Virus record (IMG/VR): IMGVR_UViG_3300020814_000535
Source: a virus
Lineage: Duplodnaviria > Caudoviricetes
Length of the DNA stretch: 64,000 bases
Direction: 5' to 3' (one strand)
Shown here: positions 7,092 through 46,165 of the stretch, piece by piece
How positions within the stretch are numbered: the stretch's first letter is position 1
Layout: each line of letters opens with the position of its first letter
Program-made: the position numbers and the translations under genes
Notes under the pieces: model-generated
The model's database searches: none
The model's input: only the letters and a program-made list of their open reading frames with translations
Told to the model about the DNA's origin: nothing

Positions 7092-8939
7092 ATGTCGGAC
7101 GAGAATCCTTCACCGAATGAAAGTCCAATTCTAGAACCAGCTCCACCCCCTGTTGATTATCTTGAAAAGTTCACTGTCAATCTGACGCGCGAAGCCCGCT
7201 GGGGACATATTGAGCCTATGGTTGGGCGGGATCAGGAGGTCAACCGAGCTGTTCATGTCTTGTGTCGCAAGAAGAAGAACAATCCTCTGCTCATTGGAGA
7301 AGCAGGGGTTGGCAAAACGACGATTGCGCAGAACCTGGCGCTGCGGATCTCTCGCAATCAAGTTCCTTGCCAGCTGCAGGACCGAGAGGTTTACAGCATT
7401 GACATTGGAACTCTAACTGCAGGAACTCGGTATCGAGGTGACTTTGAGGAACGAGTTCAGGGCATCATCGAGAAGCTCAAGGCGAAGTGGCGAAAGCCGA
7501 TTGTCTTTATTGATGAAATTCACACGATGATCAAGGCAGGAAGTGCCAGCGACTCCCCGCTCGATATGGTTAGTCTCTTGAAGCCCGTCATTACTGAAGG
7601 GCTCATTTCATTCATGGGCTCGACTACGTATCAAGAATACAACAACCGTATTCTGAAAGACCCTGCTCTGGCACGACGGTTTCAAAAGATTGATATTCTC
7701 GAGCCTTCGGCTGATGAAACTCTGGAAATCCTCGATGGTTTGAAATGGACCTATGAGGGTTTTCACAATATCACCTACACCAAGGCTTCCCTTCGTTCGG
7801 CAGTGGAGTTGTCGGGACGCTTTCTGCGCGACAAGAAGTTCCCTGACAAGGCAATCGACGTGGTTGATGAGGCGGGCGTGCTGGTCAAGCTTGCGGGCCG
7901 CACGGAAGTGACCCCCAAAGACGTTGAGACGATCATCTCGCAGATGGCCCAGGTGCCGGTAAAGAACCTGAGCCGCAAGGAAAGCTCGAGAATTCACGAG
8001 CTAGAAAAGAACCTGAAGGAGCGAGTGTTTGGGCAGGATCACGCCATCGACCAGATTGTCTCATCAGTGAAGATGTCGCGGGCAGGACTCACGAATCCTG
8101 TGAAGCCAATTGCCTCTTTTCTTCTCACGGGACCCACGGGTGTAGGGAAAACCGAAGTTGCTCGCCAACTGGCTGAATTGCTGGGTTTGACCCTTATTCG
8201 CCTGGATATGAGTGAGTACACTGAAAAGCACACTGTTTCTCGTCTAACAGGAGCCCCTCCGGGATATGTCGGCCATGAGGACGGAGGGCAGCTGACCGAC
8301 CAAGTGCGGAATAATCCTTATTCGGTAGTCCTTTTGGATGAGATTGAGAAGGCGCATCCGGATATTTTTAACATCCTGCTCCAGATCATGGGCTATGGAA
8401 CGTTGACCGATAGTCGGGGCAAAAAGACCGACTTTAGAAATGTAATTCTGCTCATGACGAGCAACTTGGACTCTCAGGTCGTCGAGAAGCGTTCGTGCGG
8501 TTTTACGGGCGAAACTACATTCCAGGAAAATGATTTGGAGTATAAAAATATGTTTCGTCCAGAGTTCCGAAATCGGTTGGATGGACGAATTCATTTCAAC
8601 TCCTTGACCCCCGAAGTGATGGGCCGAATTGTAGATAAGTTTGTTCAAGAGCTGGAGAAGCAGCTGAGCGATCGACGAGTCAAGATCCAGTTGACGGAAT
8701 CCGCGAGGGAAGATTTGGCTCGGCGAGGCTATGACCGAGCTTTTGGGGCTAGGCCCTTGGCGCGCTTGATTCAGAAAGAACTCAAGATGCCACTCTCCGA
8801 GGAAATCCTCTTTGGTAAGTTGAAGCGGGGAGGGAAGGTGGTGGTTGATTGTCGGGGTGGCGAGTTGATGCTTTCGTATGACAAAGATATGAAAGAGATT
8901 CCAGAAGAGGTTCTGCAAGAAGATTCGGCTCTTAACTAG
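7092..8939 (+). CDS. clpA: ATP-dependent Clp protease ATP-binding subunit, ClpA-type, lacking the N-domain
   Basis: Two AAA+ modules (GEAGVGKT/FIDEIH; GPTGVGKT/LLDEIEKAH), GAPPGYVG pore loop, FGARPL; no ClpB M-domain. Confidence 0.93.
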   Translation: MSDENPSPNESPILEPAPPPVDYLEKFTVNLTREARWGHIEPMVGRDQEVNRAVHVLCRKKKNNPLLIGEAGVGKTTIAQNLALRISRNQVPCQLQDREVYSIDIGTLTAGTRYRGDFEERVQGIIEKLKAKWRKPIVFIDEIHTMIKAGSASDSPLDMVSLLKPVITEGLISFMGSTTYQEYNNRILKDPALARRFQKIDILEPSADETLEILDGLKWTYEGFHNITYTKASLRSAVELSGRFLRDKKFPDKAIDVVDEAGVLVKLAGRTEVTPKDVETIISQMAQVPVKNLSRKESSRIHELEKNLKERVFGQDHAIDQIVSSVKMSRAGLTNPVKPIASFLLTGPTGVGKTEVARQLAELLGLTLIRLDMSEYTEKHTVSRLTGAPPGYVGHEDGGQLTDQVRNNPYSVVLLDEIEKAHPDIFNILLQIMGYGTLTDSRGKKTDFRNVILLMTSNLDSQVVEKRSCGFTGETTFQENDLEYKNMFRPEFRNRLDGRIHFNSLTPEVMGRIVDKFVQELEKQLSDRRVKIQLTESAREDLARRGYDRAFGARPLARLIQKELKMPLSEEILFGKLKRGGKVVVDCRGGELMLSYDKDMKEIPEEVLQEDSALN

Positions 8940-8947
8940 GAGATTTC

Positions 8948-10315
8948 ATGTTCGACACTCCCACCTACCGAGAATTCCGTCAAAACAATGGTCGTTCGGG
9001 AATTCGTTACTGGACGATCTTTCTTGAGTTTGAACAAATTCACACCTCGTGGGGCTCTTTTGACGACGGGCTCTACAGTCAGTATGGGGAGACTGATGAC
9101 ATTCCAGGCCCCAAAGGAAAGCCCAATACCAAAGCTTTCAAGACAGCGGAAGAGAATGCCCAATTCTGTTATGACCGATTGATCCGCAAGAAGAAAGAAG
9201 AGGGATACGTCGAGGTAAATATTGAAACAGGCGAACCTCTGGAACCCGTGGATGAGACTGCCAATGTGATCCTTTGGGATCGTCCGCTGCCCAAGAACCT
9301 GTGCTTCTGCAAGCCCAAGAATTCGGTTTCTGAGAGTCATGTTCAGAAGTTATATAGCCGTAGTGACTTGATCCTCACCCGCAAGATTAACGGGTTGACA
9401 GTTGTTGCTCAGATTGGCGACAAGCGAAAGATTCGTTTGTTCAGTCGGCGGATGGACAGTGTAACAGATCATTTTCCGCAGTTGGTCGAGGCCCTGGACT
9501 GGATGAATGTCAGTTTCCTCGATCAAACGGTCCTTCTATTTGAAGGATATTTTGGCGAAGGAAATACTCAGGAGGAGTTTGAAGCTGTTCAGGGAGTCAT
9601 GAACTCCAAGCCTGAACGAGCGCTTGAGCTTCAGCAGCGAGACGGATGGATCAAATTCTATCTTTATCGAGTTCCTATTCTGAACGGGATCGAGATCGAG
9701 AAGACCCATAGTTGCCGCGACCAAATCGAAACGATTGAAACGTTTTCTCACGGCTTTGAAACGTTTTGTTTCCACAGAAGGAAATACGGACGTTTTCTAG
9801 AGACTGTTCGATGCATTGACATCGATCCCGAAGATATCAAGCAGACTATTCTCGAACGAGGCTGGGAAGGGTTTGTCGGATATCAGGCCTCCGGAACCTT
9901 TGGCGACTACTCCTATTCCTTTCACGGCAAGCCAGATCGCCCCTCTTGTAGTTTCAAGATCAAGCCTGAATTTGAAGATGACTTTGTCGTCTTCTGGGAG
10001 CCCGACAAGTCAACCAAGGAGTTTCCCCGAGGAACTTGGGGCAGTGGCAAGAACTCCAAGTCCATTGGAGCTGTTTCGCTCTACCAATACAACACCAAGG
10101 GAGAACTGGTCTATATCTGCGATACCTCAGCCTTTACCGATGAAAAGCGGGCCAGACTAGAATCCATCACGAGCTGGCCCATTTGTGCTCGAGTGAAATA
10201 TACCAACCGCTCGTTTATCTCTCGAGGACGGAAGACAAACGCCTTGTTATTTCCACGATTTGATGAAATGAGAACAGATAAAACGGTTGAGGAATGCGTG
10301 AGAGAGGAGTTATAA
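8948..10315 (+). CDS. ATP-dependent DNA ligase with N-terminal WGR-like domain
   Basis: KING (motif I), FEG (III), GWEGFV (IV), KIKP (V), LLFPRF...RTDK (VI); SWG and KKKEEGY in N-terminus. Confidence 0.85.
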   Translation: MFDTPTYREFRQNNGRSGIRYWTIFLEFEQIHTSWGSFDDGLYSQYGETDDIPGPKGKPNTKAFKTAEENAQFCYDRLIRKKKEEGYVEVNIETGEPLEPVDETANVILWDRPLPKNLCFCKPKNSVSESHVQKLYSRSDLILTRKINGLTVVAQIGDKRKIRLFSRRMDSVTDHFPQLVEALDWMNVSFLDQTVLLFEGYFGEGNTQEEFEAVQGVMNSKPERALELQQRDGWIKFYLYRVPILNGIEIEKTHSCRDQIETIETFSHGFETFCFHRRKYGRFLETVRCIDIDPEDIKQTILERGWEGFVGYQASGTFGDYSYSFHGKPDRPSCSFKIKPEFEDDFVVFWEPDKSTKEFPRGTWGSGKNSKSIGAVSLYQYNTKGELVYICDTSAFTDEKRARLESITSWPICARVKYTNRSFISRGRKTNALLFPRFDEMRTDKTVEECVREEL

Positions 10316-11046
10316 AATGCATGTTTTCATAGTTTTGGATTCAAATGGATGGACCGATAGACCAACGATTCTCACGATGGTTACGGTGAATGAAGATGAA
10401 ATTTCTTCAACCAGGGCAAAGCTCCTCGATTTGGTTGATCAACTGGAGGGAGCTTACATGAAAGAAGGAGATACAGATACCGTTTCCCAGGCTCTAGATT
10501 ACTTGGATGGGCTAGTTCATTCGGACGAAAATGAAGAACTCTGACCGCTTCAAATCCTTCCGTAAAACCACTTGGGATGAACGTAAGAAGTGGGCGGTTT
10601 ACTTCTTGGTCAGCTCAGATCGCTACTCTCCCTATCTTTCTAATTTCCTTGCCGAATGGTTCTACAACGATAAGATGCACGAAGAAGAATTCATAAAGAG
10701 ATTTAAGAAATTAATAAGGAATTTAAAGGGATATCAGTAAATGCACACTCTAGCTATCATTGGGATTATTCTTGCTCTTCTGTGCTGGTGCTGGGGTCTA
10801 TTTTGGATGATTATTTCGATGGTGTTTGGTTCGGAAGAATTGCAGAATCTTAAATTAGAACTTAAAACTCGAGAAGAAATAGCACATGTAACGGGTGGGG
10901 TCCGCGAGGAAATGAAGACTGTTTCCCGCATGATTCTCTTTTCCATTCCCCTTTTTATTTTTGCTCCTATCTGTTGGCCCTGGTTGGGGCTTCGAAGGGC
11001 TGTTGGTTGGTTTGTTGAAATAATTCGATTTGCTTGGAGGTAGATT

Positions 11047-11807
11047 ATGACTCTTCTCGCTAAAGCCGACCTACGTGGTCGCGGATGGCGGGGATGGACG
11101 GTAAAGCAACATTTTGTACTACTCTGCGACAGGAGCTATGGTTTTGGAGAATGGTGGCGACGTCTTTGGTATCTTAAGCCCATTCGGCCCTGGAGATGGT
11201 TGAGCTTGGATTTTCCGCGAGAACAGATTACCGCTGATCAGGCTCGATCAATTCTTAAAGAAGAAGGAATTCTGTAACAAACTGCCTACTCTTATCTAAA
11301 ACGGTAGACGTTTTGTATCAGGAGAAATGAAATGAATGCTTCGCTTCTTAAAAAATCTTCTAGCGGAACTGACGGATTACGTCGATGGGAATTGGGAAAA
11401 CATGCGGCGCTAGTCTGTTTATCTTACGTTGATCCGCATAAGTTTCCATTTCCCAGAATTTATTGGAAGGTGTTTCCTAAAAACATTTGGGCCACCACAG
11501 AAGAGATTTGGTTTACGGCAACAACAATTTCCCGTCAAGTAGCTGTCGAGATACTTCAACAAGAAGGAATCTTATGAATGCCTCACTTTTTAGAAAATCT
11601 TTTCGAGATGAAAATTATCCCTGTGGTGGACGTTATTGGCATCTTGGGCCGGTAAGAGAAATTCACTGCGAATCTTTCTATGGAAGTATTATTTGGGAGA
11701 TTAAGTTCCGTGGTCCGTGGGTTCTTGACGAAGAACTTTATGTTCCACGTGTTGTTGTTACGCGGAAACAAGCCATTCAAATTCTTGAACAAGAAGGAAT
11801 TCTCTAA
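11047..11807 (+). CDS. Three tandem paralogous ~77-81 aa proteins (11047-11277, 11332-11577, 11574-11807)
   Basis: All end IL[KQE][EQ]EGIL; two start MNASL; Trp-rich. Confidence 0.8.
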
Positions 11808-12006
11808 TGCCAACATCTGATCTTGCGGATATGATTTGTACAACTATTGTAACTCTGGCTTCTTTCTATTTCTTCTACAAGTTGATGAAATGAAATGACC
11901 ACTGAAACAACTCCTCTTTTCACCTATGCCATGATGGGTGGAAGTGTCTTCCTACTGACACTCGGAGTTTGGCTAAGGTTGACTGATAAAAACTTGGAGA
12001 AACCCA

Positions 12007-12330
12007 ATGAAACTCAACGACTCTCTAACCGATGAACTCTTTGACGATACCGAGCTTCCCCTCCAAGTTTGCAAAAGCGGGGCAGGCTATTACATTGGCC
12101 AGATGGAGCCTTCGGGTTGCCCTTATTCTCGTCTCTCGGATTATTACCCGACTCAAGAAGACGCCGAACAAGGTCTCGAGTTGGAATTCCCCTTGCGAGA
12201 AGTAGTCGAGAATGAACGATTGATTCGAGAATTGACCGAGAAGGGTGTTATCAGGCCTATGTTTCCAATAAAGAACTCTTCCCTTATTGAAATCATGGGA
12301 AGCTTGTTGATTGAAGAAGAAGAGGAATAA
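12007..12330 (+). CDS. Conserved phage/ICE hypothetical protein
   Basis: QVCKSGAGYYIG...PYSRLSDYY motif. Confidence 0.7.
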   Translation: MKLNDSLTDELFDDTELPLQVCKSGAGYYIGQMEPSGCPYSRLSDYYPTQEDAEQGLELEFPLREVVENERLIRELTEKGVIRPMFPIKNSSLIEIMGSLLIEEEEE

Positions 12331-12530
12331 TGCCGAAACTTACTGTAACCGTGCTGGTGGAGATGGGCGGGCAAGAATTTGAATGGGCCTGTTCAACTTT
12401 AATTCCAGAAGGAGTGTTCCCTGAGGAAGCAAGGGTGGCGGTTGATCTCTATGAGAACGAAGGGACTCCTGAAGCAATGTTTCTGGACATGGAAACGGCC
12501 ATTCTAAAGAAAAGAAGTTAAGGAGAACTC

Positions 12531-12770
12531 TTGAAGAAACTTATCCTGCTACTCTTTGCTCTCTGTTGTTTTTCCTGCGTTCATGTCTGTCAGGTGGGGC
12601 TCTCGAGGTGTAATGGAACATCTGTTGAGCTTTGTGACGATATGGGTCAATGGTACCAGGTCATGGACTGTAGCGAGTTGTTGGTCGAAGACGACGATTG
12701 GGCGTGTTGTTTGACCGTCGAAGATCGCCATTCGTGTCTGCCGGCTCAAGAATGCTCGGTGACGCGATGA
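12531..12770 (+). CDS. Cys-rich putative lipoprotein
   Basis: Signal peptide plus Cys (CFSC); RCNG..ELC...GQW...DC pattern. Confidence 0.65.
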   Translation: MKKLILLLFALCCFSCVHVCQVGLSRCNGTSVELCDDMGQWYQVMDCSELLVEDDDWACCLTVEDRHSCLPAQECSVTR

Positions 12771-13360
12771 CTCCTGAAGGCGCTGTTGTCCGAGATTTCT
12801 GGAACTATCTGTCAGCCGAATACGGAAGCCGAATTGTTCACAAGGGGTCGGCGGCAGAAATGAAGGCTGCTGCCAAATTTCTTCAGACGATTGGAATTCT
12901 CGACGCTGAAGAATTTCTCAATTATTATGCGACAACTATTGGGAAAACGATCTATATTCCATTTGAGATTGGAGTAGAGAACGACGATTGGTCCCTTTGG
13001 GAACAGATCAGTGTCGGGGCGCACGAACATCAACACATTGTTGAACTCAATCGAGATGGGTGGGTGAAATACAATGCAGGATATGCGCTCTCTGGAACCA
13101 AACGAGCATTGTATGAAGCAGAATGTTATCGAACTGATATGGAGTTGTGGTTCTGGAAGACGGGTCAGATTCGTGGGCCGGGAGGGTTCAGTTTGAAGGG
13201 ATATGGTCTTTCGGCGGCGCAAAACAAGACCTACAAACAGTATCTGGAAATGTCGGCGCAAGTGATTCGACGAGGGGCAATCGTCAACGAAGTGTCGCAG
13301 AAATCGATTCGATGGTTGAATCAGAATGGTCTGGTATTTCAAGATCCGAGGACAAAATGA
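12767..13360 (+). CDS. Zincin-like metallopeptidase (DUF4157-like)
   Basis: ATTIG..IY, HEHQH and YEAECY motifs. Confidence 0.7.
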   Translation: MTPEGAVVRDFWNYLSAEYGSRIVHKGSAAEMKAAAKFLQTIGILDAEEFLNYYATTIGKTIYIPFEIGVENDDWSLWEQISVGAHEHQHIVELNRDGWVKYNAGYALSGTKRALYEAECYRTDMELWFWKTGQIRGPGGFSLKGYGLSAAQNKTYKQYLEMSAQVIRRGAIVNEVSQKSIRWLNQNGLVFQDPRTK

Positions 13361-13602
13361 CACCAAAAGAAAAGTCCGAACGACTGGATGAGATTCGGAA
13401 TCAAATCAAAGATTTGGTCTACGAAGCCAGGGATTTGCTCCGACATGAAGGGATTACGTGGGATCGAGCCAACAGTTATTGGTATGCCCACATTCTCATG
13501 GCCTTGGATAAAGAGCACGATTACCTTGGTAGCTCCATGGTGACAATGGAAGACACAATATACGAGCTGGACTATGACGAAGAGGAAGAGGAATAATCCC
13601 TA

Positions 13603-14034
13603 ATGCACATCCAAGTTGCGTCTCAAGCTCAAGCGGAATTGGCAAACAAGATCAAGATTCCTCACGCGATTATTAGTATCATTCAGCCGGGACGAAGTGC
13701 GAAACCCAAGGAGAACGATCAGACGCGGGCAAAACTAACGCTCCAATTTCACAACCTCGAGTCCGAACCCGATCGAGCCTGGAAGAATTTCTACGGGGAA
13801 GCGAAGTTGTTTAACGAGGAAATCGCGGGAGAAGTAAAGACATTCCTTTCTTCCCTCTCGGACATTGAAATGATTCTGATTCATTGTGAAACAGGCAGAC
13901 ATCGCTCTCCTGCACTGGGAGCCGCTCTAGCAAATTATTATGGGGATGGGAAACAGGAGAATACTTTCTTTTGTCCGCCCTACATGCCAAGTGAACTTGT
14001 TTATAATGTTGCTGTGAAAGCTTTGAAAGAATAA
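13603..14034 (+). CDS. Predicted protein tyrosine phosphatase
   Basis: IISI and IHCETGRHRS (HCx5R) P-loop. Confidence 0.8.
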   Translation: MHIQVASQAQAELANKIKIPHAIISIIQPGRSAKPKENDQTRAKLTLQFHNLESEPDRAWKNFYGEAKLFNEEIAGEVKTFLSSLSDIEMILIHCETGRHRSPALGAALANYYGDGKQENTFFCPPYMPSELVYNVAVKALKE

Positions 14035-15275: not shown

Positions 15276-15285
15276 CCTGCCTTAC

Positions 15286-15321: not shown

Positions 15322-15345
15322 GAAGCAAAATCCGGGAGGAATAAA

Positions 15346-16313: not shown

Positions 16314-16334
16314 GGCGCGAAAGGGAGGTGGGCC

Positions 16335-17161: not shown

Positions 17162-17608
17162 ATGGGGTATCTAGATCTATCTGGTTTCTTTGAACATGGT
17201 CCCTATTGGTTTGAAAAGCGGGAAACTTCGCCTTGGGAAAAGCTTGTTGACTGGGACAAGATTATTGAAGAATTGAGAAATAAGTACGGAGATTGTGGCA
17301 TGTTTACAGAAAAGTACGCCTATCCAAGAACTTATTCTGTTCCGGACAGCGGGATCATTGCGTGTGATCTTCCAGGGGTTGGTCGGGAGAATATCTCGAT
17401 CACGATTGAGCGGGGCTTCCTCCAGATTACAGTCTATGAGAAGCCAACAGATCCGCCCAAGAAGGGCAAACTTTACAAGCTGATGACGTACACATTGCCC
17501 GATGGCATCGATCAGACCCAGATTACCGCAACGTATGTTGACGGTGTGTTAAAGATTACGATCCCTACTCCTCAAAAGAAACAGCCTTTCGAAGTTAAAA
17601 TATCGTGA
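17162..17608 (+). CDS. Small heat-shock protein (Hsp20/alpha-crystallin)
   Basis: DLPGV..ENISI, LPDGID...ITATYVDGVLKITIP, C-terminal VKI. Confidence 0.9.
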   Translation: MGYLDLSGFFEHGPYWFEKRETSPWEKLVDWDKIIEELRNKYGDCGMFTEKYAYPRTYSVPDSGIIACDLPGVGRENISITIERGFLQITVYEKPTDPPKKGKLYKLMTYTLPDGIDQTQITATYVDGVLKITIPTPQKKQPFEVKIS

Positions 17609-21953: not shown

Positions 21954-22025
21954 CTCTCTGTAGCTTAATTGGGAAAGCACCCGGCTGTAGCCGGGATGTT
22001 GTTGGTTCGACTCCAACCAGAGGGG
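21954..22025 (+). tRNA. tRNA-Asn-like gene with 6-nt anticodon loop (probable pseudo-tRNA)
   Basis: CTCTCTG/CAGAGGG acceptor, GCTT/AAGC D-stem, CCCGG-CTGTAG-CCGGG, GTTGG-TTCGACT-CCAAC; G73 followed by CCG. Confidence 0.75.
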
Positions 22026-22393
22026 CCGGGAGGAAAGAATGGGAAGTAATTCACCTGCGCCGAAATTCAAAGTAGGCGATTTGGTTAGAATTAATGTCGA
22101 GAGTTTTATTCCTCGAAATGTTCTAGCCATTGTCAAAGGTGTTCAGCGTAATGAAGTTTGGGGAATTGGTTACCCCTGCAAGATGGACGCAGAAGAGTTG
22201 GAGAAATACAAAGAGAATAAGTGGGAATACTGGATCGAAGCTGCTTCTCCGATTAAGGTTCAAGTTAGAGAGCTTATCTTTCCTACGTTCCAAGAAGTAG
22301 TCAAATATGCTTCTTTTCAAGAAACAATTATCTCTTCTTCTGGCCTTGATTTTACTGGCGAATCAATGGGTCTAGAAAAATGGAGGCAGCTCA

Positions 22394-24062: not shown

Positions 24063-25241
24063 ATGTCTAATCTTCTAGTCGTGGGCCTTCAGTGGGGAGA
24101 TGAGGGAAAAGGAAAAGTCGTCGATCATATCGCTCGAGATGCTCAGATGGTGGTTCGGTTTTCCGGCGGGGGAAATGCCGGCCATACCATCGTCTCGGGT
24201 GGGAAAAAATTTGTCCTCCATCATCTGCCCAGTGGGGTGCTTTATCCGGGAGTGGTTAATGTGCTGGGCGAACGGATGGTGATCAATCCGATCAAGCTGG
24301 TCGAAGAGATTGAGGGGCTGAAAAAAGAGGGAATCTTCCCCAACATCAAGATCTCTTCGCGGGCACACGCCATCCTGCCTGAACATATCAAGGCTGAAGA
24401 GAAGAAGTGTTACCAAACCTTGGGAACGACCAAACAAGGCATTGGTCCCTGTCACGAAGCTAAGGTTGGTCGGCGGGGCAAACGCATGCGCGAGCTGGTC
24501 AACAATCTGGAGAAGCTCTACTACGGTCCCGAGTTCTTCGAGGCCATGCAATATTTGGCCCCGATGGTCGTGAATACATTCGACGAGATTACAGAATATG
24601 TCACCTCAAAGCAAAATATTATCTTTGAGGGTGCTCAAGGAATGCTACTCGACGTGGACTACGGGACTTATCCGTATGTTACCTCTTCTAGTATCAATGA
24701 CTTGGGAATTTATTTCCGCCATGTGAATAAGGTGATTGGCGTCTTCAAGCCTTATGTTACTCGCGTTGGGACGGGACCTTTTCCGACTGAATTGACCGAC
24801 GAAATAGGCCAAAAACTCCAATCCCAAGGCTGTGAGGTGGGCTCTACCACAGGCCGTGAGCGACGATGTGGATGGCTAGACTTGGGAGCTTTAAAAACGT
24901 CAAGTGATATCGCGGGCGTCAACGAACTGGCCATCACGAAGCTCGATGTTCTCAATGGTTTTGAGAAGATCAAAGTTTGCACGAGCTATCGTCACAAGAA
25001 AACAGGGATTCCTGTTTGTTATGATGATTTAGTAGATTTGAATGATGTCGAGCCGCAATACATCGAACTTCAGGGCTGGGAACAAGCTTTCAAATACGAT
25101 TACCCAACACCTGCGGCAAACGACTTTATCACCTACCTCGAGACTGAACTCGCCCTTCCCATTACTTTCATCTCTACCGGACCTGGTCGAGATCAAGTTG
25201 TTGACCTCTACACGTTAGAAGAAGAAGCACCTTCTGAATAA
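24063..25241 (+). CDS. purA: Adenylosuccinate synthetase
   Basis: QWGDEGKG, NAGHT, GTT..GIGP, FEGAQG.LLD.DYGTYPYVTSS, TTGR.RRCGW.D, TKLDVL. Confidence 0.95.
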   Translation: MSNLLVVGLQWGDEGKGKVVDHIARDAQMVVRFSGGGNAGHTIVSGGKKFVLHHLPSGVLYPGVVNVLGERMVINPIKLVEEIEGLKKEGIFPNIKISSRAHAILPEHIKAEEKKCYQTLGTTKQGIGPCHEAKVGRRGKRMRELVNNLEKLYYGPEFFEAMQYLAPMVVNTFDEITEYVTSKQNIIFEGAQGMLLDVDYGTYPYVTSSSINDLGIYFRHVNKVIGVFKPYVTRVGTGPFPTELTDEIGQKLQSQGCEVGSTTGRERRCGWLDLGALKTSSDIAGVNELAITKLDVLNGFEKIKVCTSYRHKKTGIPVCYDDLVDLNDVEPQYIELQGWEQAFKYDYPTPAANDFITYLETELALPITFISTGPGRDQVVDLYTLEEEAPSE

Positions 25242-25363: not shown

Positions 25364-25720
25364 GTGAGTAAACAGCTTCTTTTCTCAATTACCAAAAAAG
25401 ACTTCCGAGTAGATGGCTTTAGTGCCGGCGGAAAGGGTGGCCAACACCAGAACCATTGTAACACTGGAGTTCGTGTAACCCACCTGGCATCAGGGGCAGT
25501 AGGGGAGGGGCGGGACGAGCGATCTAAAGGCCAAAACCTCAAGAACGCCTTCAAGCGCTGCATCGACTCCAAAACGTTTCAGCTCTGGCTGAAACTGGAA
25601 GTGGCAGCACGACTCAAGGGTTATGGGGAGGCAGCAGAGTTGGTTGATAAATTGATGGAACCCAAAAACCTCAAGACAGAGATAGTAGAAGACGGAGAAT
25701 GGGTCGAGCTAAAGGAGTAA
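25364..25720 (+). CDS. Stand-alone class I release factor GGQ domain (peptidyl-tRNA hydrolase-like)
   Basis: GGKGGQHQN...GVRVTH..SG...ERS..QN...A. Confidence 0.88.
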   Translation: MSKQLLFSITKKDFRVDGFSAGGKGGQHQNHCNTGVRVTHLASGAVGEGRDERSKGQNLKNAFKRCIDSKTFQLWLKLEVAARLKGYGEAAELVDKLMEPKNLKTEIVEDGEWVELKE

Positions 25721-26054: not shown

Positions 26055-26724
26055 GTTCCACCAAAGACGAACTCCATCAAATTCAACTCTGCCTCACACG
26101 ACGTGTCTTTGATATCCAGGAGATGCTTCAGAGAGGGACAATCTACGAGAAACCTCATGATATTGAATTTACGACCAAGATGGTCCACGAGATAGAAGAG
26201 CTAGAGAAGTTGAGAGATAAAGTGGCCGACGAATTCGTAAAGGCTTTCGATGAAAATCATTGACGATATCACTCTCGATAGTTGGGAGTTAGCACAGATT
26301 CAGATGTGTATTCGAGGGCGTCTGAGACTTCTAGAAAAGCAGCTGCGATGTTTAGAAGAAGGATATGAGAATTACGATGAAGACGGAGAGCCACTACTTT
26401 TTGGTGCCGAGGAAAAGTGGGCTCTCGAGGTAGACATCTCTAGTTTCAAAGAGCTTGTTCGTAAAGTCGACCTGATGGTCTCTAGTGAATTTCAAAATGG
26501 TCTTTTAGAAATAAAGGCAAAATCATGACAACAGTTTTTAATCTTCGGACGTACAATGAGCAGGTGTTTAGCTTGCCTCCGCGCGAGGCAGTTATCGCTG
26601 CTTATGCTCAGAGCCTTGGTGATTGGAATACGTGGGAGTATGAACAGAAGTACGGTGCCAAAGTTCGCAAACATAAACGGACTTGGTGGCTTGGAGATTT
26701 CTCAGCGATAGAGAGAGGGAGCTA

Positions 26725-27918
26725 ATGACCTACATTATTTTCGGTGGCGCAGGCGAACAGGGAATGGCGATAGTCCGTTTTCTGTTAAATTATACGAGAG
26801 ACAAGATTTTTGTTGTTGATTGTCGAACGCCAGTTGAGCAACATGCCAGGTTGAGATGTGTTCGTGTATTGCCAGATGAATTGCCTCAGTCTCTGCATGG
26901 GGGTTTGGGAGACTGTGTTGCTCAATTTGCCAACGAAGGAAGGAAATCCGAGCTAGAAGACTATCCCATCGTAATCAACAGCATCTCTCCTTCGATAAGT
27001 TTGGATATTGCCTATTGGTGCGATGTTCATCGATTTCATTATTTAGATTTGGGCGGGACAACCGAGATTACCCAAACGATGAATTTTTGTTTTTCAGATC
27101 ATGGCCAAACATTCTTTATTCCCGACTGTGGTCTCGCTCCTGGATTGATCTCGGTCATTACTGGGTGGATCTGTCAGACGATGCCAGCAAAATACATCTC
27201 TATTCTGTGTGGCGGCCTTCCCATGAATCGCCTTGAGGGTTATCTGTGTTATGTTAAGTCCTTCAGTGTAAAGGGACTGATCAACGAATGTACGGGAACT
27301 GTCGACGAAATCATCTGTGGAAAACTTCGAGCCAGACCTGCGCTTTATGAAGTTGAAGAAGCTTATCTCGATCCGGTTATCTATGATGCTTATGAATACG
27401 AAGCTTCTCCGACGTCGGGAAGCTTGTCTCTGACGCCACATGCATTTGTCGGAAAACTCGAACGGCTAACCTATCACACCCTGCGCTATCCAGGCCACTG
27501 GAAACGTGTGAAAGAGATTTTGTCTCAACCACGAGCCGAAGAAGTCTTGGATCGGCTTATCGAGCCGGTGGGGCCTTATCATCCCGATCATGTAATCTTG
27601 CAGATTATTGCTGCAAACGAAAAAGAGGACGTCATTTTTTGTAAGACCTGGCATTGGCGATATGATTTTGAGAATAATATCTCAGCTATGGCTCAATCGA
27701 CAGGCTACACGATAGCGGCAATTGCGACGATGGTCTCCGATGGGGAGGTGACTAAGAACGGGCAAAAAGGGGGCTTCCTCCACTTGCACGACATTGATTA
27801 CCCCGAACTAGAGAGACGCATTCATCTGATGCCTCATCAGATGATCGAATTAGATGGAAAGGAAGTGAAACAATGTCAACCAAAATCGTCGACAACCACG
27901 AAGAAGTCCAAGGGCTAA
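26725..27918 (+). CDS. Saccharopine dehydrogenase / lysine 6-dehydrogenase family oxidoreductase
   Basis: GGAGEQG Rossmann loop, YLDLGG, DCGLAPG, CGGLP, GLINE, TLRYPGH. Confidence 0.88.
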   Translation: MTYIIFGGAGEQGMAIVRFLLNYTRDKIFVVDCRTPVEQHARLRCVRVLPDELPQSLHGGLGDCVAQFANEGRKSELEDYPIVINSISPSISLDIAYWCDVHRFHYLDLGGTTEITQTMNFCFSDHGQTFFIPDCGLAPGLISVITGWICQTMPAKYISILCGGLPMNRLEGYLCYVKSFSVKGLINECTGTVDEIICGKLRARPALYEVEEAYLDPVIYDAYEYEASPTSGSLSLTPHAFVGKLERLTYHTLRYPGHWKRVKEILSQPRAEEVLDRLIEPVGPYHPDHVILQIIAANEKEDVIFCKTWHWRYDFENNISAMAQSTGYTIAAIATMVSDGEVTKNGQKGGFLHLHDIDYPELERRIHLMPHQMIELDGKEVKQCQPKSSTTTKKSKG

Positions 27919-36251: not shown

Positions 36252-36254
36252 ATC

Positions 36255-38040: not shown

Positions 38041-38049
38041 GAGAAAGTC

Positions 38050-38460: not shown

Positions 38461-38462
38461 CC

Positions 38463-38657: not shown

Positions 38658-39026
38658 TTCTATGACCAAGAAGTTCGAGCCCCCGTCACTGGACGGAGTA
38701 GTTTCGCCAAAGAAAAAACTGCCCGCAAAGGAAATTGAGGTTGTTCCTGTTCTGCCGGAAGAGAAGCCCTCTCTGATGAAGGAAGGCGAACTCTATCTCC
38801 ACATTTTTGTAGATGGCAAAGACACTAGAAAAAACATCAAAGATATTACGCCCGTAGAAATGGTTGAGTGGGTGAAGAAGCATTGCCCTTCATTGGACGT
38901 GACTGTCAAGGAGGTTGATACCACTCAGAAAAGAAATTCTACTTTTGAGCTTGCAATGAGAACTCTGTCTGGTTTAAAGTTAACCGTTCCAATGACACTA
39001 AGCAAGTAACTTAACGAAAGGAAAAT

Positions 39027-39293
39027 ATGCCGTCACAGTTGTTTACAGGTCTAGAAGTAAAGCGCGTAGAGTCGACTCCTGGAAGTACACTTCTTGGTCA
39101 TGGCAAGGCCGAGTTTATGAATGTTCTGACAATTCGGTTTGCCATTCGTAAGTCAAAGGACGGAACGCCCTTTGTGGCAATGCCTGCCCACATCTCGAAG
39201 GGCAAGTGGTTTGATGATGTAAAGATCAAGGACCTCGAAGAGAAGCGTCGTTTTGAGAAGGCCGTACTCGATGCCTACGAGAAGGCAGAGTAA
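39027..39293 (+). CDS. spoVG: SpoVG-family nucleic-acid-binding protein
   Basis: G.PFVAMP, G.WFD.V, VLDAY. Confidence 0.75.
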   Translation: MPSQLFTGLEVKRVESTPGSTLLGHGKAEFMNVLTIRFAIRKSKDGTPFVAMPAHISKGKWFDDVKIKDLEEKRRFEKAVLDAYEKAE

Positions 39294-39542
39294 TAAGAAA
39301 GAAGAAGGAGAAAAGAATGACCCAGAGTCAACGTCGTGCCCGTCGTGAGTTTCGTAAGCAGCGTGGTGAGGCAGTCTATAATATCCTGAAGGCACTCTAT
39401 CGGACAGATCCCTGGACCAAGGCTGGGAAGCGCGCCCTCAATCGGATGAGGGACCTGTACGGGGCTGGAACGGTAGCAGCAGTTCTGGCCAACGACACCC
39501 GTGGCGCCTACCGGGCCTGGGTCCTCGATATGGGGCTCTAAA

Positions 39543-39611
39543 AACTTCACTTCTCTCCGGTAAGCCTCTGGGGCTCAAAACTCTGGGGCCTTATCAGGGA
39601 GGGGTCAAGTT
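39543..39611 (+). ncRNA. Long G.U-rich intergenic stem-loop
   Basis: ~30-bp imperfect stem pairing mainly on the + strand through G.U pairs. Confidence 0.6.
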
Positions 39612-40303
39612 AAGAGGTTAGTTTGAGAGAACCGTTAGACCCTTTATTCCAACATACGAATCATCTTCTTGCTGTTAGCCGCGATGGGGAAGATTTATAT
39701 TATGGTTTGTCTTTGCTTTTTCCCCCTGGAGAAGTTTTTGATCGAGCGACAGTCTTATTGATAAAAGAGGAAAAAGGTTTATGTAGTGTTGACCCGGCGG
39801 TAAAATGTCTCCTTGATTTTTACTTTGATTCCAATAATGAAAGGATGTCTTTGTTTAGAGAGCTTCGCGAAATAAACCGTCGCCAATGGGATCTCGAAGA
39901 TCGAGTTCGGACGGAGCAATCCGCTGAAGCGGCAGTAGCCGCGAGGGAAAACAACAATCTCCGTGTAGCATGTAAGAATAAGATTAACAAATTGTTTGGT
40001 TATGGAAATGAAGTGAAGTGTTATAAGGGAGAGTCGTGATCATCGAGAGATGGGTTCGTGAAGAATTGCTGAACATTTATATTTCTAATGAAGTAAAGAG
40101 CAAGGCCCTTTTCGCAGGAGATACTATTAGCCACAAGACAGCTAATGAATGTGTAGCTAGAGGTTGGGCCGCCAGAAATGATGACGGAGAATTTGTTTTG
40201 ACAGATACTGGACGTTTTCTTGCAGCAATCTGGCTTAAAGAAGGCGTCGACTACGAGGGAGATCTCTAGACAACAAGGAGTAATTCAAGTATTTTATTTA
40301 TTT

Positions 40304-40687
40304 GGGCACGATCGGTTTCGACGGGACTGGAGTGGGAATGAAACGCAGGCAGGGGATCCAAGCTTCCTCTAGAAAACAACTTGGAAAAACTAAATGCCGA
40401 ATCAAACGAAACCGCAGTCGCTGTCAGAGTCCAGGGATTCGTCCCCGTTCTCTCTCATCTGGTAGCTTCGGCTGCTAGAGCAGAGACCCAAGCGGTACTG
40501 GCTTAATAGCCGGGGCACTTCTCGTCATTGCCTGGCAACAGAAAGGCGAGACTTGGTTGGTGAACTTGGAAGTAGATAATCAACCGAGCACATGAACTTC
40601 GCAAACTGAGTGTCTGTCTGCAAGCCTGTTGATCGTTTTGTTTTTGCCTAGTTTCGGACGGGAGTTCGATTCTCCCCGTGTCCACCA
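40304..40687 (+). ncRNA. ssrA: tmRNA
   Basis: GGGCACG/CGTGTCC acceptor with G3.U70, ACCA end, TTCGAC after D-loop, PK1 (TCCAAG/CTTGGA), resume GCC at 40396, TAA TAG stops, GTTCGATT T-loop. Confidence 0.95.
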
Positions 40688-40732
40688 AGTATCCGTTATT
40701 ATTAACCTCTTTAAGCCTCGCTAAATCCTATC

Positions 40733-41740
40733 ATGCCTAACTTTCTAACTGGTCTTGAATTGGATGATGTTCTGCTGGAGCCCTGCTACTCCCCGTTTCT
40801 TAGTCGTTTCTCGGGGGAAATAGATCTGTCCACAGAACTTCTACCGGGTGTGAAGCTTCGTGTTCCTATTATCTCGGCCAATATGGATACAGTGACGGGA
40901 GTAGCTCTAGCCAATGTTATGTACGAAGGTGGAGGGCTAGGGATTATTCATCGGTTTGACGATCTGGTTATCCAGGCTAATAAACTCCAGCAGCAGAAGG
41001 GACCTGTTATTGTTTGTATTGGCACAGGGGATGAAGCCAAGAAACGGATGGATCATTTCGCGAAAGAGCTAGATAATTACGCTGGGATTCTAGTCGATAT
41101 TGCTCATGGTCATTCAGCCCCCATGGTTGAAATGATCAAGTGGTTGGCTAGAGAATACAACGAGGTCCCTGTCATTGCGGGCAATATTGGGACAACCTGG
41201 GCCGCGCGAGAGCTAATTGATTTGGGAGTTGATTGTCTAAAATGTGGAGTAGGTCCTGGATTTTCCTGTAGAACTCAAGCTAACACGGGTGCTGGTGTTC
41301 CTCAGCTCACTGCTATTCTCAACGTCCGAGAGGGAATAACTCGGGCATTTAATGAAGGTTTGAAACGCCGAGTGACTTTAATCGCTGATGGGGGAATTAA
41401 GTCTGGCGGGTGCATCACAAAGTGTCTTGCTGCTGGAGCTGATGCTGTAATGATCGGGAAGTTATTTGCCGGCACCAATGAATCTTGTGGAAAGAAGTAT
41501 CTCCAAGAAGGGAAAGCTCTTTATCGGGGGATGAGTAGTTTTGAAGCGATGACAGAATGGAAAGGGCAAGTAACTTCGGTTGAAGGAATTTGCACTTGCG
41601 TTCCCTTGCAGGGGCCAACAAAAGAAGTTCTGGAAAGACTAGTCGCGAACGTTCTATCGGGATTCAGTTATTTGGGCGCAAGTAATGTCAAAGAACTAAG
41701 AGAGAATGCTACATTTATCGTAAGGAGCAAGAGAGACTAA
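40733..41740 (+). CDS. GMP reductase / IMP dehydrogenase family enzyme without CBS domains (GMPR more likely)
   Basis: SANMDTV, GLGIIHR, VDIAHGH, GVGPGFSC, IADGGI, YRGMSS, VEG; no Arg-Tyr flap dyad visible. Confidence 0.88.
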   Translation: MPNFLTGLELDDVLLEPCYSPFLSRFSGEIDLSTELLPGVKLRVPIISANMDTVTGVALANVMYEGGGLGIIHRFDDLVIQANKLQQQKGPVIVCIGTGDEAKKRMDHFAKELDNYAGILVDIAHGHSAPMVEMIKWLAREYNEVPVIAGNIGTTWAARELIDLGVDCLKCGVGPGFSCRTQANTGAGVPQLTAILNVREGITRAFNEGLKRRVTLIADGGIKSGGCITKCLAAGADAVMIGKLFAGTNESCGKKYLQEGKALYRGMSSFEAMTEWKGQVTSVEGICTCVPLQGPTKEVLERLVANVLSGFSYLGASNVKELRENATFIVRSKRD

Positions 41741-42403
41741 TTGTATACACAGACGATTCTCGGTATTGATGAAGCGGGACGAGGTTGTTTGGTTGGTCCG
41801 CTGGTGATGTGCGGAGTTGTACTTTCAGACGACGATCAAAGGAATTATCTAAGAAAGATTGGCGTTAGAGATTCCAAGCTTTTCGGCGGCAATAAACATA
41901 CTATCCAGCAGCGACGTCAGCAGTTGTACGAAGAGATCAAAAAAGTTGCCACCCACGTCTTTGTAAATCGCGTTACGGCCCTCCAGATCAATTCCACTGT
42001 AAAAAGTCTAGATAGTCTGGAAATTGAATTGGCCTGGGAAATCATTTCCTGGGTTCTCGGATCTCCATTTATTCTAGGAGATGATGGGAATCTAACGGTT
42101 GTTCTGGATGGACACGATATGTTCGAAGAGATGGAGAAAGATTCAGATAATCATCTTCTGATCACTTCGGTTAACCACGCAGATGAGCAAATTGTTGAAG
42201 TTTCTGCTGCTTCCATTGTAGCTAAACATCTGAGAGACCAGATGGTCCTGAGCATTATGGGAGATTACTTTTGGAATGGAGCGGGCTACTGCAACGATGG
42301 AACTATCAAGTGGTTGCGCTCAGGAGAAGCCTGGGCCGTTCAAGACTTTATCCGTCAGTCGTGGTCGTGGTGGGATAAAGTGAAAAAGGAGTTGCGCCAG
42401 TGA
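41741..42403 (+). CDS. rnhB: Ribonuclease HII
   Basis: GIDEAGRG..GP, DSK, DG, VSAASIVAK..RD. Confidence 0.93.
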   Translation: MYTQTILGIDEAGRGCLVGPLVMCGVVLSDDDQRNYLRKIGVRDSKLFGGNKHTIQQRRQQLYEEIKKVATHVFVNRVTALQINSTVKSLDSLEIELAWEIISWVLGSPFILGDDGNLTVVLDGHDMFEEMEKDSDNHLLITSVNHADEQIVEVSAASIVAKHLRDQMVLSIMGDYFWNGAGYCNDGTIKWLRSGEAWAVQDFIRQSWSWWDKVKKELRQ

Positions 42404-42710
42404 AAAAACTCACAGGCACGGACTTTGATCTATTTGAGTTGCTTCATCGAACCCAGGAAAGTTTGGTCAAGGGCCTCAATTTTGTAGAATTGCCCGAAGG
42501 ATTGAGCTACAGTGATGAAACAGCAGGAACTCCTCAAACACCTAAGAAAAAAGTGGGCCGCCCTCGCAAGACGCAAACAGGAACTAGCTGACACAGAATT
42601 TAGCCCTGAATGTGATGCTGAGGTAGTTTTATTAAAGCACGAACTCTTTGATATTTTTATTGAGATGTTTAACCGAGGATTAGACCCTACAAGTATTTGT
42701 AGTCATTTGA

Positions 42711-43373
42711 ATGAAAATAATTAAACCGTCCGTCTCTCTTGAATTCATCACTCCAGACGCAATGCAATTGATTGAGAAGATTGGAAGGACCTGTTACAAG
42801 TCTGAAGACCGTATCACTCCTAAAAGTGCAGAGAAGTTTGTTAAAATGATCCTCGAGCGAGGACATAAGTCGGTTGTTGAACATGCCCACGCGAGTTTTC
42901 GGGTAATTTGTGATCGAGGCGTTAGCCACGAATTCGTTCGCCACCGAATCTTTAGTTATAGTCAGGAAAGCACTCGGTACTGTAACTATTCCAAAGAAAA
43001 GTTTAATAATGAGATTTCTGTCATTGAGCCTCCTGGCCTAACTGATTCACAGCACGTCTGTTGGGCTTGTGCTGTTTTAGCCTGCGAAAATGAGTACATA
43101 CACCTGATTGAAAAAGGAGCCAAGCCTGAAATTGCTCGCTCAGTATTGCCAACCTGTTTAAAAACCGAACTAGTTGGGACGGCTAACTTCAGAGAATGGC
43201 TTTATTTCCTCGAAATGAGGGCTTCGGCGAAAGCTCATCCACAAATGCGAGAAATAGCTTATAATATAGGAGTAATCCTCCATACTCAATATCCAGTCAT
43301 CTTTCCAGTGGATTACACTGAGGAGTTGACCAGGCTTCTTGTCTCTGGGGATTTTCGAGGAAGTACTTCTTAG
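42711..43373 (+). CDS. thyX: Flavin-dependent thymidylate synthase
   Basis: GH.SV.EH, RGVSHEFVRHR..SYSQESTRY, ARSVLP, NFREW, AHPQMR. Confidence 0.96.
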   Translation: MKIIKPSVSLEFITPDAMQLIEKIGRTCYKSEDRITPKSAEKFVKMILERGHKSVVEHAHASFRVICDRGVSHEFVRHRIFSYSQESTRYCNYSKEKFNNEISVIEPPGLTDSQHVCWACAVLACENEYIHLIEKGAKPEIARSVLPTCLKTELVGTANFREWLYFLEMRASAKAHPQMREIAYNIGVILHTQYPVIFPVDYTEELTRLLVSGDFRGSTS

Positions 43374-45445
43374 CTTGGCCTTCTGTGGGCCGTTCTGGCT
43401 TGCGATTTGTGCGTTGTTAATTATGCTACTGTTTGAGTTAAGTGATTAGAGGTTCTTGTGAAGGTAGAAGGAATTCAGTGTGATTACTGTCCAAAAATTT
43501 CAGACAGAAATGAGATACTAGAATGTTCTTTGTGCGGATCTGACGTATGTAAAGATTGCGCAATTATTCTAAGGTCCGAAATGCGCCGATTTAATGGGCA
43601 GCGCGTTGTTGATTATGAACTTAATGATTATGTTTGCGCAAAGTCTTCTATCTTTTGTCCCCATTGTGCAGAAATTCTTTTTGAAAAACTAGCCGAATGG
43701 TATAAAGAACAGCTCACTAACTTCCGAGAGGAGCCGTGACTTATTGGCCAAAAATAAACCCGTTAGCAAAAAGCAGGCGCAGAAAATGTTAACCGAACTT
43801 GTAGACTTTGATGTTACTTCAAAAGAAGAAGTTCTTATCATTATGCGCTACAATCTCAAGACCGCTTTTGCTGACGCTGGTTTGTTTGGCTCGGAAATGG
43901 AGACGGATGATTTGGCCGAGTTGCTTGACGCGCTAAAGACGATGCTGGTTGGTCAGGTTCGCAAGGACGAAGCCGACGAGAAAGAGGAAAAGATTCTGAA
44001 TTAGATGCCTGGATCCTACAAGACTAACCTGGGAACAGGTTTTGTCTTTTCTACTAAAGATAAAGGCGAGTTCAAAGCTTCTGGATTAAAAGTGGGAAGC
44101 ATAAATATCTATTCCGACAACACTGGGCCTTTTAGCAATCCCCTTTTTGGCGAAACTCTTACGGTTGGTGACAGCTACTGGGAATGGAAGCCTGTTCTTG
44201 AGAATGGGGTTCAAACGGAGGCTTATCAGATAGTTTCGATTCCAGCGGTTTCGGCAACGGAAGAAAAACCTAAGTCCCTAGATCTCAAACAGTTAAAGGA
44301 AGAGATGAAGGATATTTTGTCTCCCGCTGAGGAAGACGAGGCAACGTCCAAACTTGCAGATATTCTTTCTATCCTGGAGGGCAGAAATAAACCAGCTCTA
44401 GACTTTTGGCAGAAACAAAAGGATCGGTTGGTTGCTTTGGCTGAGAAATATTCGGTTGAAGCTCTGTTGGTTACGCCTCCCGGAAAACATTCGGGCAAGG
44501 ATGTAATTCGAGAAATTTCAGAGCTGATGCTTTGTATTGCCGCCAAAATTCCTCAGGCCACTCCCGATTTGGTTGAGTTAAGAGAGAAACTTGAAGCCTT
44601 TGCTCGTGACATCCTCATCAAGCAGGATGTCGACTTGTTGGTTCTGCAAAAATTTCTACTCTATCTAACTGGTTTCGATTTTGGAAATCAGCTGACAGCA
44701 GTTTGGAGTGCTTTTTTATCTCAATCTCTGATGCATCGGGAGTTCGAGGCGACCTACGAAGAGACGTTGAAGCGAGCTATTGATTGTGCGCACAGGAATG
44801 CCTATGATGAAGCTTATTCGAGAGCGAAGTCCGAGGTTCATCGGGAAATTCAATCCGAGTCGAAAAAACTTCTTGATCAATGGAAAAAAGAAGAGTTAGA
44901 TAGAATGTATGAAGAGATGTGGAATAAGATGATGGCGAGCAAAGATAAGGGTCTTAAAGAGGCTATCATTTCATCGTTGCTTGGAGAGGAATAGGGTAAG
45001 TCGTCCTAAAGGTTTGCGTGTCAAAACACCGCGTTTCTGATTCCTATCTAGACTATCTCGGTCGAAATCCCAAATGTCCCAAGAAGCGTTGTACGGGTTG
45101 GCTGATCCCTGTCCTTGTGAGCTACAAGGGCAAACCACCAATCTGGGAGTACGAGTGTACGCTTTGTGGGAAAGTCGTTCGCCATCCACCATCCGATAAG
45201 CCAAGGAAAAAGGTTTTTTCACATGAAGCTCGAAGAGAAGATTCAGAGCAGTCCTGATTGCGTTGTCTTTGTTCTCTTGAATGGAAAACGAGTTCTCGAT
45301 CCTTTGGACGCGGATGATGGCGAGGGCTGGGTTGAAGTAGAAGACTACGAAGCAGTAGCTCCACCTGTCGAAATGGAAGAAGCCGAACCTGACTTGAGTA
45401 CCGATCTGCCTGAGTCGATTCAGTGTCTTCCGGTTAAGCGACTCT

Positions 45446-46165
45446 ATGGCCAAGTTTCGTTTGCCTGTCTACATGCAAAAACGCACTCGTAAAAAGCAAC
45501 AACCCAAAACTCCCAAACCCGAAGAGCTTCTTTCTCAGCTGATTAGTTCGTTGGGTAGTCCATCTCCATCGAATGGAGACCTAGATGATTCCGATTTGAA
45601 CGACGATGGTTTTTCTTATCTGGGGGAACAGCTGGCCAAGAAGGGGATCTTCTTTCTCTCTGGCGAAGTGAACGAAAGTATTCAAAGTCTCATTTCGTTG
45701 TTTTTGCTGAAGCAAACAGACTTGGAGTGGAAAGACCCCCTGAGGCTTTATGTGAATTCTCCTGGTGGATATACGGCCAGTGGGTGGTCCCTGGTTGACT
45801 TAATGGGCTGGATTCGTGTCCCTATCATTACGGTCGGAATGGGGCTGGTCTGCTCGATGGGGACCATCATTCTTGCGGCGGGGACTCCAGGGAATCGTTA
45901 CATTATGCCCAATACAGAGATTATGATTCACCAGCCGTCGTCCAGTACGGGCTACGGAAACTACTCTCAGATCTTGGCGGCTACTGAGGGCATTCAACAG
46001 GAGTATGACCGACACGTTCGCTTCTGGATGCGAGTCAGCAGATACAAGACCAAGGGAGATGTCGAGAAGCATTTATTGAAGAAGCTCGATCACTTTCTGA
46101 CACCCAAAGAAGCTTTGAGCCACGGCATTGTTGATGGTATTCTTGAAAAGGACTCGAGTGTCTGA
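45446..46165 (+). CDS. clpP: ClpP protease proteolytic subunit
   Basis: YVNSPGG, CSMG (Ser), MIHQP (His), DHFL (Asp), G.VD. Confidence 0.93.
   Translation: MAKFRLPVYMQKRTRKKQQPKTPKPEELLSQLISSLGSPSPSNGDLDDSDLNDDGFSYLGEQLAKKGIFFLSGEVNESIQSLISLFLLKQTDLEWKDPLRLYVNSPGGYTASGWSLVDLMGWIRVPIITVGMGLVCSMGTIILAAGTPGNRYIMPNTEIMIHQPSSSTGYGNYSQILAATEGIQQEYDRHVRFWMRVSRYKTKGDVEKHLLKKLDHFLTPKEALSHGIVDGILEKDSSV

Follow-up and report, generated by a model that had tools for sequence, protein, structure and literature searches.

Gene content of the locus

The virus record IMGVR_UViG_3300020814_000535 (Duplodnaviria; Caudoviricetes) is complete at 188,653 bp, carries direct terminal repeats, and has a G+C content of 44.8%. 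The stretch analysed here, referred to as the window, comprises 64,000 nucleotides, and its positions 126-64000 are the initial 63,875 bases of the complete record. The window encodes a transfer-messenger RNA (tmRNA), a ClpA-type unfoldase, a ClpP-family peptidase, a stand-alone GGQ protein, and an Hsp20 small heat-shock protein (Table 1). An original prediction, made from the letters of the window alone, had recognized these five together with a basic ArfA-like peptide and combined them into a possible self-contained system for ribosome rescue and proteolysis, whose genes are dispersed and do not form an operon. All five assignments hold, and the genes are indeed spaced 5-15 kb apart with unrelated genes between them. 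In contrast, the self-contained system was not borne out. The set is probably a loose collection, made up of auxiliary genes of translation rescue and protein quality control that were acquired separately, and not a single co-inherited machine.

Table 1. Features discussed in the text. Positions are those of the window, except for the last two rows, which lie outside the window and are numbered on the complete record (G000)
Feature	Position	Strand	Description and evidence
tmRNA (ssrA)	40304..40687	+	One-piece, full length; Rfam RF00023, 111.6 bits (gathering score 47), model 1-374, not truncated
Tag reading frame	40396..40509	+	Resume codon GCC, 36 codons, then TAA TAG (sequence and translation)
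ClpA	7092..8939	+	Two-ring AAA+ unfoldase without N-domain, 615 aa; PDB ClpA, E=6e-194
ClpP	45446..46165	+	ClpP-family serine peptidase; Pfam PF00574 (CLP_protease), 123 bits
GGQ protein	25364..25720	+	118 aa, stand-alone release-factor domain 3 with acidic C-terminal part; RF-1 domain PF00472, 49.3 bits, GGQ motif
Hsp20	17162..17608	+	Hsp20/alpha-crystallin small heat-shock protein; PF00011, 46.9 bits (cut-off 20.8)
Basic ORF	4135..4275	+	46 aa, orphan, net charge +10; GGAG ribosome-binding site
Ligase-like gene	8948-10315	+	455 aa, ATP-dependent ligase-like
Adenylosuccinate synthetase	24063-25241	+	PurA
Aberrant tRNA	21954-22027	+	Rfam, 54 bits
Saccharopine dehydrogenase-domain protein	26683-27918	+	411 aa; C-terminal domain, 54.8 bits
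ATPase	49482-52037	+	851 aa, with HNH endonuclease segment
Ribonucleotide reductase large subunit	53815-57564	+	1249 aa, with HNH endonuclease segment
27-nt repeat	1-180		6.7 copies, 90% identity
Transposase	G000:C1:148406-149587	-	393 aa; PHROG 506, 383 bits
Gene after portal	G000:C1:156176-158203	-	675 aa; no Pfam or annotated PHROG match

tmRNA and its tag

The tmRNA matches the Rfam model over its whole length, and its acceptor, T-arm, and resume context are intact. As read from the sequence, the acceptor stem is GGGCACG/CGUGUCC with the G3:U70 pair, followed by ACCA, which gives an encoded CCA end. The program ARAGORN fails on this RNA, as it does on six of the nine other Rfam-detected phage tmRNAs. 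Phage tmRNAs have been described before (PMC4131195, PMC12484599). Like the tmRNAs of the Bxz1/Catera group, Wildcat, and Bacillus phage G, the present one is a one-piece molecule in a large genome that has no smpB (PMC4131195, PMC12484599). Bacillus phage G also has ClpP and ClpX, and the Catera-group phages also have a mini RF-1 protein.

The tag is the unusual part of the molecule. Its 36 codons (AESNETAVAVRVQGFVPVLSHLVASAARAETQAVLA) end in VLA, whereas the tag of phage G has 13 residues, and the frame is neither short with an Ala-Ala end nor closed by a stop in the helix-5 loop. The Rfam consensus has the stop UUAAUA in that loop, while UCAGAGU is found here, with AGA in frame. The tmRNA of one relative (G017) has UAA UAG in the helix-5 loop and a canonical 11-aa tag with an LALAA end. 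The tags of three other phage tmRNAs that were checked are 11-20 aa long and all end in AA. Most simply, an ancestral tag of some 10 residues would have lost its stop and would now extend 26 codons further, which we infer from the loop and the frame. The segment that holds the stop in use (ACUGGCUUAAUAG) is similar to ACUGGCUAGUGG, a conserved segment of the G017 RNA, and because of this resemblance the stop TAA TAG may be incidental.

A tmRNA of this kind could be decaying or repurposed after the loss of its stop, so that its main role would be to soak up host SmpB, or it would yield tagged products that escape host proteases. The in-frame AGA at the stop position of the model, the shorter, AA-ended tags of the three other phages, and the possibly incidental nature of the stop in use are in line with this view, and titration of SmpB has been discussed for a phage tmRNA that is cut down to the tRNA-like domain (PMC4131195). 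However, the RNA here matches the model along its whole length at 111.6 bits and keeps its acceptor, T-arm, and resume context, and no relatives of it were found by which conservation could be gauged. Decay or repurposing appears improbable on balance.

The G000 and G017 tmRNAs have only the universally conserved tRNA-like parts in common and lie at different genome locations, and on this comparison they are not orthologous. Pattern scans of viral contigs, GTDB genomes, and metagenome contigs gave no close relatives of the tmRNA. An attempt to identify the host by way of the tmRNA gave no assignment: a 24-mer of the T-arm occurs in many phyla, and bacterial tmRNAs match only in the T-arm and acceptor.

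ClpA and ClpP

ClpA aligns in one continuous stretch to residues 151-744 of E. coli ClpA. Both pairs of Walker motifs are intact (Walker A at residues 69 and 347, Walker B at residues 137 and 412), and the pore loops RYR and GYVG are present. The Pfam matches are AAA, AAA_lid_9, AAA_2, and ClpB_D2-small, which gives two AAA+ modules and no ClpB middle domain. The score with TIGR02639 is 837 bits, under the cut-off of 993. No match to Clp_N (PF02861) was found in the protein or in the upstream open reading frames (ORFs), and there is thus no split-off N-domain. Because it has no N-domain, the phage ClpA would offer no docking site for ClpS or another adaptor.

The original prediction had also pointed to an IGF-like loop, SCGF, and this sequence (residues 468-471) is aligned with SIGL of the E. 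coli ClpA docking loop. At the position of the IGL tripeptide the phage protein has C-G-F, and none of 79 viral homologues has Cys at its first position. Docking of the phage ClpA to ClpP is therefore not assured. The nearest homologues are full-length cellular ClpAs with 52-57% identity, and the best viral match is at 49%. By sequence, the phage ClpA is a lone acquisition from a cellular ClpA. The gene that follows clpA starts 8 bases past its end; its product has a weak DNA_ligase_A_M match and is labelled 'ATP-dependent DNA ligase' in PHROG.

The catalytic triad of ClpP (S137, H162, D215) is invariant in the alignment and lies within the motifs SMG, HQP, and D-x-F. All PDB matches are cellular ClpPs, and their alignment begins at residue 61. 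Ahead of it stands an N-terminal extension of about 60 aa, first basic and then acidic, that has no counterpart in cellular ClpP. In the alignment with human ClpP, the Tyr in LYVNSPGG and the Trp in LMGW fall on residues of the pocket region. Compared with E. coli ClpAP (PDB 1ksf, 6w1z, 6uqe), the phage unfoldase shows about 50% identity over both AAA+ rings and shares the Walker motifs, the pore loops, and a docking loop of equal length. In contrast to that system, it has no N-domain and has CGF in place of IGL, and its partner ClpP is very divergent and bears the 60-aa extension.

Phage ClpP together with ClpX or ClpA has already been described (PMC12484599). Jumbo phages, such as RaK2-like Klebsiella phages, Yersinia phage fHe-Yen9-04, and the phages of many IMG/VR jumbo contigs, similarly have a two-ring Clp ATPase with a ClpP elsewhere in the genome, and their Clp ATPases often have no N-domain and an [LIV]GF loop. 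The ClpA here differs from these modules: its identity to cellular ClpA (57%) exceeds that to the phage copies (at most 49-54%), and the relatives of the phage do not have it. ClpP was present in 6 of the 7 complete phage records with a ClpA/ClpC-like gene, and a tmRNA above the Rfam cut-off in 2 of the 7. Many phage contigs contain a two-ring Clp ATPase that has a VGF loop and no N-domain, and the GenBank phages with ClpA-like and those with ClpP-like genes come largely from the same groups. Based on these three observations on the two Clp genes, a phage ClpA-ClpP protease is a known and recurrent pair, of which the present phage plausibly represents a new instance, its ClpA being cell-like and its ClpP divergent. 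The pairing itself is unproven, since the docking tripeptide contains Cys and the N-terminus of ClpP cannot be aligned.

The ClpP-family gene could alternatively encode a capsid (prohead) maturation protease that has no connection to ClpA or to tagged proteins. Its best PHROG match is labelled head maturation protease, ClpP-family head proteases are frequent in phages, and a Pfam scan of the genome gave no S77 or S78 prohead protease. However, the gene is separated by about 108 kb from the portal and capsid genes, which are on the opposite strand, and its neighbours are replication and nucleotide genes (thymidylate synthase, Whirly protein, ribonucleotide reductase, UvsX, and DNA polymerase). 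The protein scores 120 bits with the ClpP subfamily model and only 43 bits with the ClpP-related head protease model NF045542, whose cut-off is 120; all its PDB matches are cellular ClpPs; and ClpP-family genes are missing altogether from G005, a relative that is 99% complete. Moreover, the 675-aa gene after the portal offers another candidate for the capsid protease or scaffold, as a lead from a language-model search in which its product resembles YonD_N, DUF6582, Peptidase_S78, and Mu-like_Pro clusters. Position, scores, absence from G005, and this candidate by the portal together make a capsid role of ClpP very unlikely.

GGQ protein

The GGQ protein resembles ArfB (YaeJ) and ICT1 in that its GGQ domain stands alone, without codon-reading domains. 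In contrast to both, it has no basic tail, and its fold is nearer to domain 3 of RF1 and RF2. The AlphaFold model has a mean confidence score (pLDDT) of 86, and its best PDB matches are RF2, RF1, mtRF1a, PrfH, and mtRF-R. The score with the ArfB model NF006718 is 12.8 bits (cut-off 100), and the net charge of the last 48 residues is -4. In ArfB, a basic tail at the C-terminus reaches into the vacant mRNA channel. The basic C-terminal tail is needed for ribosome binding by ArfB (PMC8012679).

The protein belongs instead with a mini RF-1 protein that has already been described in phages (PMC9583779). It shares the length of about 110-130 aa, the full-length similarity, the GGQ motif, and the conserved C-terminal F/W/V/E residues of that family. 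The family comprises 171 clusters at E<=1e-5, with 45-64% identity over 90-100% of the length, and an alignment of 23 sequences has 25 invariant columns. The described members Catera gp202, Nanosmite gp140, and McGee gp209 (PMC9583779) are about 115 aa long, have GGQ, and match the protein at 45-52% identity along 97-99% of the length. The Catera gene likewise lies among replication and recombination genes. Unlike Catera, Nanosmite, and McGee, the phage here is of another host range and lineage. Members are present in hundreds of phages, and among the genes of the set this family probably promises the most as a target for study.

Nanosmite, EniyanLRS, and Catera have both the mini-GGQ gene and a tmRNA, whereas WXIN has the gene only. 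A full-length tmRNA was found in 4 of the 16 complete IMG/VR records that bear the mini-GGQ gene, which is similar to the rate in ClpA-bearing phages, and a specific link between the two was rejected. Both tend to be found in large phages rich in translation genes, and each can do without the other.

The gene directly upstream of the GGQ gene encodes an adenylosuccinate synthetase. It was considered and rejected as the PurZ enzyme of Z-genomes (2-aminoadenine), with 417 bits for the PurA equivalog (cut-off 402) and 112 bits for PurZ (cut-off 300).

Hsp20 and the 46-aa basic ORF

The Hsp20 gene has a strong AGGAGG ribosome-binding site. The basic ORF, which had been proposed as an ArfA-like peptide, exists and has the predicted basic character, but its similarity to ArfA is unsupported. 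No ArfA match was obtained in Pfam or NCBIfam at E<=10 or among PDB chains, and no homologue of any kind was found among 5.8 billion proteins. The mRNA showed nothing unusual in the way of an arfA-like hairpin (z = -0.85). In view of these uniformly null results, the ArfA identity was rejected.

Missing partners

tmRNA requires SmpB. The original prediction had called for a search of the remaining genome for smpB, and no match to PF01668 was found in the complete 188,653-bp genome. ClpS is likewise absent from the complete genome. With no SmpB, no demonstrable ArfA, and a GGQ protein that has no ArfB-type ribosome-binding tail, the gene set is not self-contained.

SmpB does occur in other jumbo phage records (G025, G031, and G038). 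Two of these, the complete records G031 and G038 (373 kb and 318 kb; loci L051, L076, L211, L213), encode SmpB along with a tmRNA, ClpP, and a ClpA/C-like ATPase, to which G038 adds an RF-1 domain protein of 175 aa. From the gene content of these two records, fuller rescue sets exist, and the phage here is not one of them.

Distribution in relatives

Co-occurrence across related phages had been named as a check of the predicted system, and an independent, patchy distribution as an outcome that would speak against it. Relatives were collected as IMG/VR capsid-protein matches with 42-67% identity; 21 records of at least 50 kb were searched, four of which are complete or nearly so. The present phage, G000 (100% complete), has the tmRNA, ClpA, ClpP, GGQ, and Hsp20 genes, and G005 (99% complete) has none of them. 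G017 (100% complete) has a tmRNA and ClpP and lacks ClpA, GGQ, and Hsp20. G012 (100% complete) has ClpP only, with no tmRNA, ClpA, GGQ, or Hsp20; its 601-aa ATPase was tried as a Clp ATPase and rejected as a classic, unrelated single AAA protein. G014 (100% complete) has Hsp20 and a ClpP-like frame with a stop, no ClpA or GGQ, and only a sub-cut-off tmRNA match of 23 bits and 122 nt. ClpA was present in 0 of the 21 relatives' contigs, and the RF-1 family in 0 of the 21 records.

The tmRNA and ClpP found in relatives are not the same genes. The ClpP here is 25-27% identical to the G017 and G012 ClpPs, and 31-37% identical to ClpP-family genes of unrelated phage records. The gene contexts of the G017 and G012 ClpPs differ from that of the ClpP here, and on identity and context the relatives' ClpPs are not its orthologues. 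The relatives therefore hold different subsets with non-orthologous tmRNA and ClpP, and the ClpA is nearest to cellular copies, which amounts, in this small sample of complete relatives, to the independent and patchy distribution that speaks against a single inherited system.

Interpretation

The preferred reading of a loose collection is built on observations: the gene identities, the intact catalytic motifs, the absence of SmpB and ClpS, and the patchy, non-orthologous distribution. The activities and partnerships of all gene products are deduced from sequence. tmRNAs, ClpP with ClpX or ClpA, Hsp20, and the mini RF-1 protein are each of a kind already described in phages.

Under this reading, the G3:U70 pair makes the host alanyl-tRNA synthetase the most likely charging enzyme of the tmRNA, which host SmpB and EF-Tu would then bring to ribosomes stuck on broken mRNAs. 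The tmRNA would recycle ribosomes during infection and add the 36-residue tag to the stalled chains. The N-domain-less ClpA most likely forms hexamers, whose CGF loop would dock onto the phage ClpP and possibly onto the host ClpP, and the resulting Clp protease would not be steerable by host ClpS. Tagged chains would be one possible substrate of ClpA-ClpP among many. The mini GGQ protein probably hydrolyses peptidyl-tRNA, with a recruitment that would not follow the ArfB way, and Hsp20 would act as a holdase.

Several points weigh against the loose collection. All five genes lie in one genome and on one strand, and a functional link would predict the same. The mini-GGQ gene and tmRNA occur together in three mycobacteriophage genera and in the jumbo record G038. 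The test of independence is small, with only four complete relatives. In addition, the proposed activity of the Clp pair is weakened by a docking tripeptide that starts with Cys instead of I, L, or V, and by the N-terminal axial-loop region of ClpP (residues 1-60), which does not align with cellular ClpP.

The first of these points is shared by the dedicated circuit of the original prediction, in which host defences that cleave RNA stall the ribosomes, the tmRNA tags the chains of these ribosomes, backup release comes from the GGQ and ArfA-like proteins, and the phage ClpAP specifically destroys the phage-tagged products. All of its parts are in one genome, ClpAP is known to recognize ssrA tags (PMC8012679), and a ClpA without an N-domain would be insensitive to ClpS. 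A different tag reader is conceivable since the tag ends in VLA and not in the usual AA, and fuller sets with a tmRNA, SmpB, a ClpA-like ATPase, and ClpP are found in G031 and G038. On the other hand, the genes are dispersed, SmpB is absent here, an ArfA-like protein finds no support, the GGQ protein has no basic tail, and nothing ties the unusual 36-aa tag to the phage ClpA. Moreover, the relatives have independent subsets with non-orthologous copies, the ClpA appears to have been acquired recently from cells, and in other phages the tmRNA is uncoupled from ClpA and ClpP. A dedicated circuit of this kind is unlikely.

A further proposal is a private tag-and-destroy channel, in which the long VLA tag would be read poorly by host ClpXP and well by an adaptor-blind phage ClpA on the phage ClpP. 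Its chance is considered slim. If it were true, truncated proteins made during mRNA cleavage by host or defence nucleases would have their fate determined by the phage and not by the host.

With the loose collection as the probable reading, the genome is a clear negative example for co-inheritance, as one lineage spans combinations from none to all five of the genes. It also adds to a picture in which large phages repeatedly acquire pieces of the host machinery for translation rescue and protein degradation. Two test objects emerge from it: a ClpA that naturally has no adaptor-binding domain, together with a divergent ClpP, and a tmRNA whose tag frame has seemingly run on after the loss of its stop.

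Genomic setting and other observations

Nearly all genes of the window are on the + strand and have early or middle functions. They include DprA-like and ligase-like genes, PurA, thymidylate synthase, Whirly, an intein-bearing ribonucleotide reductase, a dNMP kinase, UvsX, and DNA polymerase. The terminase, portal, capsid, and contractile tail genes are on the opposite strand, far from the genes of the window. The phage is lytic-looking, with its rescue and quality-control genes in the early/middle region. A megablast search with 10 kb of the window gave no match among GenBank phages.

A 27-nt unit with the consensus ACGCCCAGATTCGGGATGTTTGGGACA is repeated at the start of the window, where it spans the genome terminus and the terminal repeat, and it is possibly a packaging or replication signal. 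One tRNA has an anticodon loop of only 6 nt (CUGUAG) on a 5-bp stem and lies 16 nt downstream of a normal tRNA-Trp(CCA). ARAGORN calls it 'tRNA-?(Thr|Tyr)(gt)', and it could be defective or frame-shifting. The HNH endonuclease segments in both the 851-aa ATPase and the ribonucleotide reductase large subunit suggest inteins with homing endonucleases. The 411-aa protein with a saccharopine dehydrogenase C-terminal domain may be the product of a polyamine or lysine-pathway auxiliary gene. Outside the window, a transposase gene lies within the virion block, directly downstream of the head genes.

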